Below are positions 11,467 to 30,555 of a DNA stretch of 41,815 bases, piece by piece. Where the stretch lies: NCBI GenBank assembly GCA_005882055.1, contig VBGQ01000095.1, positions 1 through 41,815 on the forward strand, in the 5' to 3' direction. Every line of letters starts with the position of its first letter. The first letter of the stretch is position 1. The translations under genes and the position numbers were made by a program. The stretch comes from Chloroflexota bacterium (GTDB lineage Bacteria; Chloroflexota; Limnocylindria; QHBO01). Below the pieces are notes generated by a model. That model did no database searches and had not been told where the DNA came from. It saw only the letters and a program-made list of their open reading frames with translations.

Positions 11467-12378
11467 TGTTCGGCCGCCGCCGCGAACGGCCTGGTGCCAC
11501 CGAGCCCGCCTCGGCGGCCGCTGAAGCTGGTCCTCCTGCAACCATGCCGCGGCCGGATCGGCCGGCACGGGGGATTGGCGGCCTGGGCCTGCGCGCTCGG
11601 CCATCCGGCCTGGGGGAGCGGCTCCGCAGCATCTTCGGTGCCGGGACACCCGCGAGCGCAGCCACTTGGGAGGAGATCGAGGAGGCGCTCATCGCCGCGG
11701 ACGTTCAACGAGGTTCGTGATCGCCTGGCGCGAGCAGGGTCCGGGACGTTCGAGCTCGGACCAGCGCCAGCGGTGCTTCTCTTCGTGGGCGTCAACGGCA
11801 GCGGCAAGACGACCACCATCGCCAAGCTCGCGGGACGCCTCCAGCGTGAGGGCCGCAGCATTGCGCTCGCGGCAGCCGATACGTTCCGGGCGGCAGCCAT
11901 CGAGCAGCTGCGGATCTGGGGCGAGCAGCTGGGGTTGCCGGTCATCGCCCAGCGTGCGGGCGCCGATCCAGGAGCCGTCGCCTTCGACGCGGTGGCAGCG
12001 GCCGAATCGCGAGGGCTCGACGTGGTCCTGATCGATACTGCTGGCCGCCTCCAGAACAAGAGCCAGCTGATGGCCGAGCTGGGCAAGATCCGGCGGGTCG
12101 TGGAGCGGCGGCTGCCCGGGCAGCCACGGCACGTCCTGCTGGTGCTCGACGCCACGACCGGGCAGAACGGCCTTGCGCAGGCCGAGTCGTTCAGCCGCGA
12201 GGCGAGGGTGACCGGCATTATCCTCACCAAGCTGGACGGAACGGCCAAGGGCGGCATCGCAGTCGCCATCGCCGACAGCCTGCGGCTGCCGATCGTCTTC
12301 GTCGGGGTCGGGGAGGGGATCGAGGATCTCGCACCCTTCGACCTGGACGCCTACGTGGAGTGGCTGCTGGCGGCCTGA
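11466..12378 (+). pseudogene. ftsY: Signal recognition particle receptor FtsY, reading frame interrupted (or sequence error)
   Basis: The N-terminal part is in frame 3 (11466-11720: ...GLGERLRSIFG...WEEIEEALIAADV, then a stop). The G domain is in frame 1 from about 11707 (NEVRDRLARAG...VLLFVGVNGSGKTTT, DTAGRL, TKLDGTAKGG). Spacing between ADV and GVNGSGKT is about 30 aa shorter than in E. coli or Thermus FtsY as I recall them. Confidence 0.8.
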
Positions 12379-12402
12379 CCCACCGTTGCCGCTCCCCGGG
12401 GC

Positions 12403-12414
12403 TGGTAGTAGGAT
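12403..12414 (+). promoter_or_regulatory. Putative extended -10 (TGGTAGTAGGAT) upstream of ffh
   Basis: The only AT-rich patch in the ftsY-ffh spacer. It is followed by two GC hairpins: GGCAGCC/GGCTGCC (12416-12452) and GGCGC/GCGCC (12453-12467). Confidence 0.25.
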
Positions 12415-12495
12415 GGGCAGCCGTTTCGCGCCGGAGGGGCCTGAAGGCTGCCGGCGCGCCTGGCGCCATTGCGAGCGTCCCTAGCGAGCGAGCCA

Positions 12496-27360: not shown

Positions 27361-27383
27361 CGTCCCCGGAAGCGAGGTGCACC

Positions 27384-28502
27384 GTGAATCGAGACTTCAT
27401 CGGCGCCCTCCTTCAGCTGAACGCCGAGAAGGGGGTCCCCAAGGAGATCCTCATCGAGACGCTCGAGCAGGCGATCGAGTCGGCGTATCGGCGCAACGCG
27501 GACGCCCCCGAGAACGTGGTGGTCAAGGTCGATCCCGATAGCGGCCAGATCAGCGTCTACCGCGAGTACGAGGTCGTCGCCACCCCCGAGGAGATCGAGG
27601 ACGACCAGCTGCAGATGCTGGTCGGTGAAGCGCAGAAGGTCGATCCGACCACGGGCGTCGGTGCCAAAGTCCGCGTGCCGGAGAACGTGACCCAGGCACA
27701 GCTGGGACGGATCGCCGCGCAGACCGCTGGACAGGTCTACCGCCAGCGGCTCCGAGAGGCGGAACGCGACGTCGTCTTCCAGCAGTACGCGAGCCGCGAG
27801 GGGGAGATCATGACCGGCGTGGTGCATCGCACCACCGAGTCAGCGGTGATCCTGGACATGGGCAAGGGCGTCGAGGCGGTGCTCGCCGTCAGCGAGCAGC
27901 TGCCGGGCGAGCACTACCGGATCGGGCAGCACCTGAAGGCCTACGTCCTCGAGGTCCGGCGCACCACGCGCGGACCGGTGATCGTGGCCAGCCGCACGCA
28001 CCGTGGGTTCCTGCGACGCCTGATGGAGATGGAGATCCCCGAGATCTACAACGGCACCGTGGTGATCCGCGGCATCGCCCGCGAGGCCGGGAGCCGTTCC
28101 AAGGTCGCTGTCGAGAGCCGCCAGGCGGGCGTCGACGCCAAGGGGGCTGCCGTGGGGCAGCGCGGCTCGCGGATCCAGGCGATCGTCGCGGAGCTGAACG
28201 GAGAGAAGGTGGACGTGGTGCTGTGGCACGACGATCCCGCCCAGTACGTGGCCGAGGCCCTCTCGCCGGCCGAGGTGCTGAACGTGCGCATCGACGAAGA
28301 GCACAAGATCGCGAACGTCGTGGTCCCCGAGCGACAGCTCAGCTTGGCGATCGGCAAGGAGGGCCAGAACGCACGTCTTGCGGCCAAGCTGACCGGCTGG
28401 CGGATCGACATCCGATCTGACGCCGGCGTGGCGGCGGCCGCAGGGGGAGACGAGGGCCGGACACCGGTGGAGGCGCCGGTCGATGCCGAAGCGAAAACCT
28501 GA
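27384..28502 (+). CDS. nusA: Transcription termination/antitermination factor NusA
   Basis: [18 protein letters not shown]..., an S1 domain (GEIMTGVV), then KH1/KH2 ([35 protein letters not shown]). The upstream 45 codons of ORF 27249 cover the promoter and terminator and are not coding. Confidence 0.93.
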
Positions 28503-28755
28503 TCACGTCCCGATGCGGACCTGCGCGATCTGCCGCCAGGTTCGCCCCAAGCGAAGCATGACCCGAATCGTCCGCGGCTCGGACGGGTCGGTCGCCGTGG
28601 ACCCAACGGGCAAGGCCCAGGGCCGCGGTACATACGTCTGTAACGATCCCGCCTGCCGCGAGCCGGTTCGGCTGGCGACGGGCATTCAACGGGCGCTCTC
28701 GGTACCGGTCAAGGCCGAGGCGCTCGAGCTAGAGGAGATCCATGCCACCCCGTAG
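28483..28755 (+). CDS. ylxR: YlxR/RnpM family (DUF448) RNA-binding protein
   Basis: [21 protein letters not shown]...GRGTYVC, in the conserved nusA-ylxR-infB position. Confidence 0.88.
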
Positions 28756-30555
28756 ATACCTGCCACGCCGCCCACCGCGTCCCCAGCGACGCAAGGCGCC
28801 CGTAGCCGCCGCAGTCGAGGCCGCCGCGGCCGTCGCCGCGCGCCCGGCGGGACCCGTCGAGCTGCCGTCCTCGGTTGCCGTCAAGGACCTCGCCGAGGCG
28901 CTCGCCGTGAGCCACGCCGACATCATCAAGGAGCTCATTCGCAACGGCATCTTCGCCACCATCAACCAGACCATCGACTTCGATACGGCGTCGCTGGTCG
29001 CCGGCGAGCTCGGATTCGAGACCGTCGAGCGCGGCGCGAGCGACCGGGCCGCCGCGGAGGCGGCGGCAGCCCAGGAGATCGTGGCCCCTGGCGGAGAAGG
29101 GGAGGGGGCCGGCAAGCCGGTCCTGTTCAGCGAGGACTCGCCCGAGGACCTCGTGACGCGCGCCCCGATCGTCACGATCATGGGTCACGTCGACCATGGC
29201 AAGACGAGCCTCCTCGACGCGGTGCGCAGCACCAGCGTGGCAGCGGGCGAGGCGGGTGGCATCACCCAGCACATCGGTGCCAGCGAGGTCGAGCACAACG
29301 GTCGGCGCATCGTGTTCCTCGATACGCCCGGTCACGAGGCGTTCACCGCCATGCGCGCCCGCGGCGCGCAGGTGACCGACATCGCGATCATCGTGGTCGC
29401 GGCGGACGATGGCGTGATGCCGCAGACCCGCGAGGCGATCGACCACGTCCGAGCCGCCCGCGTGCCGATGATCGTGGCCATCAACAAGATCGACAAGCCG
29501 GATGCCAATCCGGACCGCGTCAAGCAGGAGCTCGGCGACATCGGCGTCCTGATCGAGGAGTACGGAGGCGACGTCATCTCCGTCCCGGTCAGCGCCAAGC
29601 AGCGAACCGGCATCGACGACCTGATGGAGATGGTCCTGCTGGTGGCCGACCTGCAGGATCTCAAGGCCAACCCGAAGCGTGACGCCATCGGCACCATCAT
29701 CGAGAGCAAGGTCGAGAAGGGACGTGGGAACGTGGCCACGGTGCTGGTGCAGACCGGCACGCTGCGCATCGGCGACGTGGTCAGCGTCGGACGGACCTGG
29801 GGCCGCGTTCGGGCGCTGCAGAACGCCGCTGGCAAGCGCGTCAAGCTTGCGCGGCCGATGCGGCCGTGCGGGCCGCCACCTCAGGAGATGGACGCAGCGC
29901 ATTCACCCTCGAGGACATCAGCGCCCAGATTCAGGCCTCGGAGGTCAAGGAGCTGCGCGTTGTGCTCAAGACCGACGTGCAGGGCTCGCTGGGGGCGATC
30001 CGGAATGCCCTCGAGCGGCTGAACAACACCGAGGTTCGCATCAACATCATTCGGGAGTCAGCCGGCGACATCAACGAGAGCGACGTGCTGCTGGCATCCG
30101 CCTCCGACGCGGTGGTGATCGGCTTCAATACCAAGCTCGACCCCGGTGCCCAGCGGGCAGTTGATGCGTCGGGAGTCGACGTGCGGCTATACGACGTGAT
30201 CTACAAGCTGACCGATGACATCGCCGCGGCGCTGCAGGGCATGCTGGCGCCCAAGCTGATCGAACAGGTCGAGGGTCACGCCGAGGTCCGCATGGTCATC
30301 AAGGCGGGCAAGGCGGGCAACGTGGCCGGCTCATACGTGACCGATGGCCGCATCGTGCGCGCTGGCAGCTACCGCCTGATGCGCGGCGGCAAGGTGATCG
30401 AGGAGGGTCGTATCGAGTCGCTGAAGCGCTTCAAGGACGACGTGCGTGAGGTCGCCACCGGCTTTGAGTGCGGGATCGGTCTTTCTGGCTCTCCAGAAAT
30501 CGAGGAGGGCGACGTGATCGAGTGCTTCCAGATGGTCTCGGAGCAGCCGGCCTGA
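28742..30555 (+). pseudogene. infB: Translation initiation factor IF-2, reading frame interrupted (or sequence error)
   Basis: Frame 2 (28742-30022) is good IF-2 up to ...[17 protein letters not shown] (about 29847), then non-homologous. Frame 1 is good IF-2 from about 29850 ([43 protein letters not shown]... to the C-terminus). The ...AGPS.PVEI.GL..VP.AGD...V..DE..AR... block of domain II (about 30 aa) is in no frame. Confidence 0.8.

Follow-up and report, generated by a model that had tools for sequence, protein, structure and literature searches.

Results

The gaps that interrupt conserved genes in the window, that is, the entire 41.8-kb scaffold C67 (41,815 nt) of a soil metagenome-assembled genome (MAG), are almost certainly assembly errors at scaffold joins and not biology, the genes themselves being intact in the organism. 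With equal confidence, we attribute the systematic ~95-nt shortfall at scaffold joins to an error in scaffolding distance. We call the deletions artefacts because the missing pieces are present in same-species DNA, because the losses are spread genome-wide, and because an equal deficit is found at runs of N. An earlier note, made from the sequence alone, had favored mis-assembly over real deletion, decay or recoding, and the nature of this MAG scaffold, the letters recovered from other runs and from a same-species assembly, and the genome-wide deficit all bear out that preference.

Six blunt joins in conserved genes of the window

The MAG comprises 1,856,547 nt in 252 contigs, with 70.61% completeness and a GC content of ~70%, and retains 26 N-runs of variable length (4–184 N). 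Word depth over the window was low (~1.4–10 per run across most bins in four runs); with this depth, its 252 contigs and 26 N-runs, the genome is a scaffolded low-depth short-read assembly. We aligned the window with relatives of the same genus (G001 and G003) and family (G016 and G007), and searched public soil runs (X1, X2 and X6 among four; X2 and X6 come from separate studies) as Logan contigs, which can demonstrate the presence of a sequence, not its absence. A further comparison was provided by L157, an independently assembled metagenome contig of the same species that is 98.8–99.7% identical to the window, with 52 differences in all.

These alignments revealed six blunt deletions of 95, 90, 87, 80, 97, and 105 nt with respect to G001/G003, four of which are also seen against G016 and G007. 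The gaps that the earlier note had placed in ftsY, rnhB, the LysM-SLT gene, and infB lie where it put them, measure 95, 87, 80, and 97 nt in alignments and contigs, and fall in the length classes it gave. On the other hand, its view that the remaining genes are full-length did not hold, as a DUF3352 gene lacks 90 nt and ftsK 105 nt. Nor are the proteins full-length relative to close relatives, the outcome that the note had set against its own reading: relatives are longer at all six junctions.

The first blunt scaffold join (J1, 11705..11706) leaves ftsY (11466..12378, plus strand) without 95 nt (3n+2) and splits it into ORFs 11466–11720 and 11494–12378. The C-terminal piece matches TIGR00064 at profile positions 78–278 of 279, and the N-terminal piece matches Pfam SRP54_N at positions 1–39 of 75. 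NCBIfam returned no family for this N-terminal piece nor for the protein encoded at 13840–15327, both of which Pfam named. In the alignment, G001, G003, and G016 carry 95 nt more at J1, and G007 shows its own 12-column gap within this 95-nt piece. Contigs from X2 and X6 bridge the junction with exactly 95 letters between its two sides, which share 0 letters. In the DUF3352 gene (13840–15327, identified by PF11832), the join at 15153..15154 (J2) removes 90 nt in frame, as evidenced by a 90-column gap against G003 and G001 and by HSP breaks of +90 and +91. Metagenome loci L151 and L159 also break at this position, so that J2 is defined by relatives, namely those of the same genus and more distant metagenome contigs.

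In rnhB (RNase HII; 17834..18541, plus strand), the join at 18049..18051 (J4) lacks 87 nt (3n), that is, 29 codons including the conserved DSK motif, and the reading frame remains open without these 29 residues. Both NF000594 and PF01351 match the product in two stretches, the second beginning at residue 70–73, and the 87-nt gap appears in alignments with G003, G001, G016, and G007. Nine of the ten metagenome loci that contain a 28-mer adjoining J4 cross the junction, and all nine carry the additional 87 nt. Record 12 of X2 fits the window up to 18049, with 96 letters remaining; the sides of J4 share at most 2–3 letters. The stretch immediately to the left (17980..18049) is a variant-laden tail that accumulates 16 of the 52 differences from L157, most of them spaced by 3 or 6 bases, and X1 and X2 contigs likewise diverge at 17980, 63 letters before their ends. 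The collapse of strain variants into one consensus, also raised in the earlier note, fails as a simple account, and what stands of it is the variant-laden left side of this one join.

The LysM-SLT lytic transglycosylase gene (18932..19940, minus strand; LysM and SLT domains in Pfam) is hit between the signal peptide and the first LysM domain by a join at 19827..19828 (J5), where the loss of 80 nt (3n+2) shifts the frame and leaves the signal-peptide piece (within ORF 19815–20162) out of frame with the body (18932–19795). Exactly 80 letters, with 0 shared, lie between the two sides in bridging contigs of X2 and X6. L157 has these 80 nt in a single intact frame of 436 codons between stops as well as the 87-nt piece of J4, both genes thus being intact in this contig.

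The join at 29850..29851 (J6) removes 97 nt (3n+1) from infB (IF-2; 28742..30555, plus strand) and splits it into ORFs 28742–30022 and 29866–30555, which match TIGR00487 at positions 76–315 and 369–581, respectively. In both G003 and G001, 96 nt separate HSPs whose ends have a 1-nt overlap in the window, and the junction shares 1 letter at most. Placement by MAFFT suggested an additional 1-nt indel in this gene, which we rejected because the sequence and the BLAST coordinates reveal one clean 97-nt loss. Record 8 of X1 matches 597 window letters without mismatch until its fit ends at 29850, with 112 letters remaining, this loose end in X1 being the one item of same-species support at J6. Finally, ftsK (39185–41467, recognized through NF007615 and FtsK domains in Pfam) lacks 105 nt in frame at 40131..40132 (J7), a join defined by same-genus relatives: contig G003:C137 places 104 nt between two HSPs with a 1-nt overlap, and the alignment shows a 105-column gap.

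Three other positions were considered as joins and discarded. A seventh candidate in the trmD–rplS spacer (17237–17333, +95 in G001) was rejected because L157 is continuous over 15209–18051 with one gap, and neither G016 nor G007 has extra letters at that spot. The +65 at 36796–36804 is seen solely against the unpublished G002, with G001 continuous, and was taken as natural. At 27178–27240, G016 and G007 have 1243 and 811 nt more, respectively, but the window shares its form with same-genus G003, which identifies a lineage feature. A fourth position, the spacer after coaD (3907–3943), shows a 54-nt shortfall against G001, under the size class of the joins, and G003 has a 54-nt net length difference consistent with it.

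Intact genes in same-species DNA

Independent contigs from soil runs and metagenome loci have the full-length form, and none of the joints listed from soil-run contigs has the short form at any of the six junctions. These observations bear on real deletion, in which a decaying lineage, or one with back-up copies, would have lost ~30 codons from ftsY, rnhB, infB, ftsK, and others. The deletions are indeed present in the deposited contig, and 1.86 Mb at 70.6% completeness makes for a small genome. Other runs and a separate assembly nonetheless provide same-species DNA with the missing pieces and intact genes. As for back-up copies, tblastn of seven pieces against the MAG's own contigs (70.6% complete) returned only the window copies and paralogues such as ffh, and no second copy of ftsY, rnhB, infB, ftsK, DUF3352, or LysM-SLT was found in them. 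We therefore regard real deletion as highly improbable, and give an even smaller chance to deletion alleles carried by some members of the population.

Under recoding, editing or excision of an element, the cell would restore pieces lacking in its DNA, or these pieces would be mobile insertions in all relatives. Besides the gaps themselves, nothing speaks for this. The missing letters code for core residues that are conserved (the DSK motif in RNase HII, positions 316–368 of the IF-2 profile, and a LysM domain), the pieces are found in every relative examined and in DNA of the same species, and their sizes show no 3n bias, which renders this the most far-fetched of the alternatives, with a practically negligible probability.

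A uniform deficit across the genome

The frequency of similar gaps in the rest of the genome, a check put forward in the earlier note, was scored with G007:C2, a near-complete relative at ~75% nucleotide identity, as sole reference. The scan covered 1,141,506 aligned nt and 440 neighboring HSP pairs, and a blunt break was defined by 57–143 nt missing, no N, and no more than 40 nt unaligned. Breaks with loss in the MAG numbered 68, as compared with 12 in the G007 direction, which amounts to ~1 event per 17 kb aligned. Their mean size was 95.6 nt (median 95, SD 19.1), with mod-3 classes of 20/22/26. Looser limits yielded 110 breaks (in 78 contigs) versus 60 in reverse, with mod-3 classes of 35/35/40 and 37/11/12, respectively. 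Natural indels account for some of these 68 breaks, and the 12 reverse events give the scale of that background; the six-gap pattern is well above chance or this natural background. An excess of small deletions was absent, gaps of 20–49 nt within HSPs numbering 5 in the MAG and 19 in G007. Blunt deletions cluster at 95 ± 19 nt, with none of 30–56 nt.

The same deficit was evident where Ns remain. Fourteen of the 26 N-runs lie between collinear HSPs, and ten of them have usable flanks. At these, the reference distance exceeded the scaffold distance, with N counted, by 131, 102, 78, 99, 88, 68, 76, 84, 103, and 90 nt (mean 92). The shortfall thus recurs irrespective of gene or reading frame and across many contigs. 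Natural deletion cannot yield together such a rate, such an even spread over the mod-3 classes, and the same deficit at N-runs.

The N-runs also weigh on two other technical accounts. In the first, runs of correct size would have lost their Ns prior to deposit, which would likewise produce blunt joins without microhomology. The 26 runs that remain argue against wholesale stripping, the survivors are themselves ~92 nt short, and the tight size class contrasts with the free distribution expected of gap sizes. This explanation is thus very unlikely, if somewhat less so than real deletion. In the second, short direct repeats flanking the pieces would have given the de Bruijn graph a short cut. Such repeats are common at ~70% GC, and the sizes are indeed on a k-mer or read-length scale. 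A graph short cut would not cause a deficit at N-filled joins, and the letters shared at junctions (0 at J1 and J5, ≤2–3 at J4, and ≤1 at J6) are far under any assembly k. Because junctions share only 0–3 letters, we dismiss repeat or k-mer collapse to the same degree as real deletion. The local mis-assembly anticipated in the earlier note stands, and its cause can be narrowed to a systematic shortfall at scaffold joins.

Proposed origin of the joins and its consequences

Our preferred reading, a distance error at scaffold joins, very probably operated as follows. At least seven short contigs from a low-coverage soil population would have been assembled into the window scaffold, paired-end scaffolding assigning each join a distance ~95 nt too small. 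Where the assigned distance was positive, an N-run would have been written (26 are left); where it was zero or negative, contigs would have been butted, or the next one trimmed, without N or an overlap check. Such butting or trimming would produce blunt deletions of ~80–105 nt. Judging from the size statistics, the ~95-nt bias may derive from the read-length or k-mer scale or from trimmed contig ends. A biased distance with unchecked trimming and a fixed trimming of contig ends fit the data alike.

The gaps have no biological import, given that ftsY, rnhB, infB, ftsK, and LysM-SLT are normal in the organism. Extrapolation from the 68–110 events in 1.14 Mb aligned anticipates ~100–180 hidden ~95-nt deletions in the MAG, on top of the 26 N-runs. 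Errors may accordingly be present in its gene calls, completeness estimates and pseudogene counts as well as in any protein taken from it, and internal gaps of ~30 codons and frameshifts elsewhere in it should be presumed artefacts unless shown otherwise. That the shortfall stems from the assembly pipeline and is not peculiar to this one genome is a tentative suggestion that we consider possible, if on balance doubtful. Were it pipeline-wide, batches of public scaffolded MAGs, species representatives included, would lack ~30 codons in ~1 gene per 10–17 kb, and truncated or frameshifted proteins would enter reference databases. The shortfall is not universal, as the same-genus MAGs G001 and G003 are free of it in the window region.

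Comparison with known systems

The pseudogenes and gene erosion of reductive bacterial genomes offer one likeness, in that housekeeping genes of a small genome are frameshifted or shortened internally. Unlike in gene erosion, the same species has these genes intact, the losses in the MAG fall in one narrow size class, and they recur at N-filled gaps. A closer likeness is offered by the MAG assembly errors addressed by Chen, Anantharaman, Shaiber, Eren, and Banfield (2020, Genome Res 30:315; PMC7111523). According to the sections of that article that we consulted, scaffolded MAGs contain consensus spots without perfect support from one read, and joins are mishandled; such errors lead to incorrect or incomplete proteins in public databases, and are suspected to be especially frequent with one widely used scaffolding assembler. 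The remedy given there is to open the join, add Ns, and fill from reads. The window is alike in that mishandled scaffold joins yield faulty proteins. The same sections describe Ns inserted despite overlap, which is the opposite of the window's fault, and contain no description of a constant ~95-nt shortfall per join, with or without N, as found in the MAG of the window.

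Results

Six genes of the window lack one internal stretch each

The window spans all of scaffold C67 (41,815 nt), the longest of the 252 contigs of an assembly totalling 1,856,547 nt and rated at 70.61% completeness and 0.65% contamination; GC content stays at 0.66-0.76 all along it. The open reading frame (ORF) table shows ftsY split between frames (ORFs 11466-11720 and 11494-12378), as is infB (28742-30022 and 29866-30555), and ORFs 19815-20162 and 18932-19795 contain, respectively, the signal peptide and the body of the minus-strand LysM-SLT gene. In turn, rnhB (17834-18541) is a single open frame that skips from after the GRG motif to before 'NILQAT'. 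Family scans, which also supplied the gene names, revealed profile positions absent at the joins: ftsY matches only positions 78-278 of the 279 of TIGR00064, infB matches TIGR00487 (IF-2) at positions 76-315 and then 369-581, and the RNase HII models match rnhB as two stretches.

To size the gaps, we searched 31 genomes at the DNA level with a 19.9-kb query; all 31 matched, and in nearly every relative the high-scoring pairs (HSPs) break and resume at identical window positions. Alignment by blastn and MAFFT to the matching contigs of two same-genus (G001, G003) and two same-family (G016, G007) genomes yielded missing stretches of 95 nt in ftsY (11705|11706), 87 nt in rnhB (18049-18051), about 77-83 nt in the LysM-SLT gene (near 19827, where the relatives diverge) and 97 nt in infB (29850|29851). 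For the last of these the junction placement proposed by MAFFT was dropped, as the sequence and the BLAST coordinates describe one clean loss. Rows of the unpublished genome G002 agree (+95 in ftsY, +97 in infB), and no claim is built on them. The four gaps of the earlier note are thus evident in both ORF tables and alignments, and its length classes (3n+2, 3n, frame-shifting and 3n+1, respectively) are all borne out by the measured sizes. Its impression that the other genes are full-length was mistaken: a DUF3352 gene (13840-15327) lacks 90 nt at 15153|15154 and ftsK (39185-41467) lacks 105 nt at 40131|40132, both in frame. Over the about 40 kb compared, neither G001 nor G003 ever lacks 57-143 nt relative to the window, which places the fault in the present assembly. 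Through window 34179-36797 both genomes align free of any break near 95 nt.

The trmD-rplS spacer (17237-17333), where G001 alone carries 95 additional nt (locus L010, G001:C105:2014-2205), was rejected as a further join, since the same-species metagenome contig L157 runs through it without the extra DNA; the match to the artefact size is a coincidence, or this additional DNA is peculiar to G001. In the spacer after coaD (3907-3943) the window is 54 nt shorter than G001; G003 shows a 54-nt net length difference that fits this shortfall, and G016 is unbroken there. The difference may reflect a small join or a natural indel. In the interval 27178-27240, which precedes nusA and follows a gene with its end at 27177, G016 and G007 are 1243 and 811 nt longer than the window, respectively, and the same-genus G003 follows the window unbroken. 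The gene preceding nusA, presumably rimP from the usual gene order, appears to have been lost or shortened at the level of the genus. The nusA ORF of the window bears an N-terminal extension.

The missing DNA of three joins is present in independent samples

Part of window 11000-20500 was found in 20 public runs, all of them soil metagenomes, from 15 studies, and seven of these contain at least half of the sampled words. Logan contigs of four runs from four studies (X1, X2, X3 and X6) were compared with window 11000-30900, a range that leaves the ftsK join at 40131 outside. For most of this range, each run had a word depth of about 1.4-10; in all four runs, summed depth rose to 16-48 at 20296-20959 (rpsB region) and to 47-127 at 28928-29591 (infB G-domain region), two regions with words common to many other soil organisms. 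Contigs from X2 (884 nt, with 150 letters on one side and 639 on the other) and X6 (677 nt, 456 and 126 letters) bridge 11705|11706 with 95 letters in between, and 19827|19828 is bridged by an X2 contig (476 nt, 237 and 159 letters) and an X6 contig, both with 80 letters in between. No letter is common to both sides in any of these four cases. Furthermore, one X1 contig (record 8) covers 597 window letters without mismatch until its fit ends at 29850 and continues for 112 letters, and the fit of an X2 contig (record 12) ends at 18049, with 96 further letters. None of the contigs listed informs the DUF3352 join at 15153.

A metagenome contig collection was scanned with the 28-mer adjoining the rnhB join, which retrieved ten loci. 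All nine that span the join carry 87 additional nt; the tenth ends 31 nt beyond it. L157, with 98.8%, 99.3% and 99.7% identity to the window in three aligned blocks (15209-21996), has both the 87-nt and the 80-nt pieces. Its rnhB is uninterrupted and includes the DSK motif. A single frame, 436 codons from stop to stop, holds its LysM-SLT gene, including the signal peptide and a further LysM stretch. Together with the bridging soil contigs, these pieces show that the three genes concerned are intact in the organism and broken in the deposited scaffold. Real deletions in the organism are therefore excluded at the ftsY, rnhB and LysM-SLT joins, where same-species DNA contradicts them. Nor was a second copy found for any of the six genes in its own genome, which is incomplete (70.61%). 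Collapse between repeats likewise fails as an explanation, because the sides of the junctions have only 0-3 letters in common.

Of the 52 positions at which L157 differs from the window, 16 are concentrated in the 70 nt to the left of the rnhB join (17980-18049), mostly 3 or 6 bases apart. This spacing identifies them as synonymous variants of a related population built into the contig tail, which is a chimeric contig end; the X1 and X2 contigs likewise diverge from the window at 17980.

Deletions of about 95 nt recur throughout the genome

We then compared the whole genome with contig C2 (2,238,515 nt) of G007, about 75% identical in nucleotides where aligned; with a minimum HSP length of 150 nt, 997 HSPs span 1,141,506 nt and form 440 neighbour pairs in collinear order. 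When breaks are restricted to those with no N and no more than 40 nt unaligned on the shorter side (strict limits), letters are missing from the present genome at 78 breaks, 68 of them within 57-143 nt (mean 95.6, median 95, SD 19.1 nt), as against 24 breaks with letters missing from G007, 12 of them in that range. By length modulo 3, the 68 divide 20/22/26, a split not expected of natural indels in coding sequence. Looser limits (282 pairs) rendered 110 events missing from the present genome (35/35/40) and 60 in the reverse direction, whose 37/11/12 split is characteristic of natural indels that keep the frame. Failure of BLAST to bridge gaps was ruled out as the origin of the size peak by the gaps within HSPs, counted over the first 840 kb of the reference: 5 in the present genome versus 19 in G007 at 20-49 nt, and 28 versus 99 at 10-19 nt. 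As only two of the six window joins pass the strict limits, the resulting rate, one event in 17 kb aligned, is a minimum. Given this genome-wide pattern, real deletions are very unlikely at the remaining joins as well.

Scaffold gaps of estimated size also remain in the genome as 26 N-runs, the shortest of 4 N and the longest of 184 N. Collinear HSPs flank 14 of them, of which four fall within extended unaligned sequence and are uninformative. At the other ten, the G007 distance exceeds the scaffold distance, Ns counted, by 131, 102, 78, 99, 88, 68, 76, 84, 103 and 90 nt (mean 92 nt), irrespective of N-run length. The equal excess at N-runs and blunt joins reveals a single deficit common to both, about 95 ± 19 nt. 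Stripping of correctly sized Ns, which would also leave blunt joins, fails here, since Ns are still present in the genome and are themselves too short.

Discussion

The gaps are an assembly artefact, as the earlier note preferred to read them, and they affect six genes rather than four; the missing pieces in same-species DNA and the genome-wide deficit of ~95 nt both uphold that reading. The simplest model would be a scaffolder that set each following contig about 95 nt too near its predecessor. A positive remainder would then be written as Ns, whereas at zero or below the contigs would be butted directly, or the next one trimmed, with real overlap left unchecked. Such placement would account for blunt deletions centred on 95 rather than spread upward from 0, for junctions devoid of microhomology, for sizes without frame bias, and for six deletions on the longest 'contig' of the assembly. 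The 95 nt may derive from read length, k-1, a wrong insert size or trimmed contig ends. Contigs of a thin soil population would tend to stop where related genomes share words, the likely reason why the breaks lie in conserved coding stretches.

The only value of the finding is as a warning about the present reference genome, the representative of its species in the genome collection used, in which roughly a hundred or more deletions of about 95 nt each lie hidden. Chen et al. (2020; PMC7111523) describe local assembly errors at scaffold joins of metagenome-assembled genomes and the harm these do to database protein sequences.
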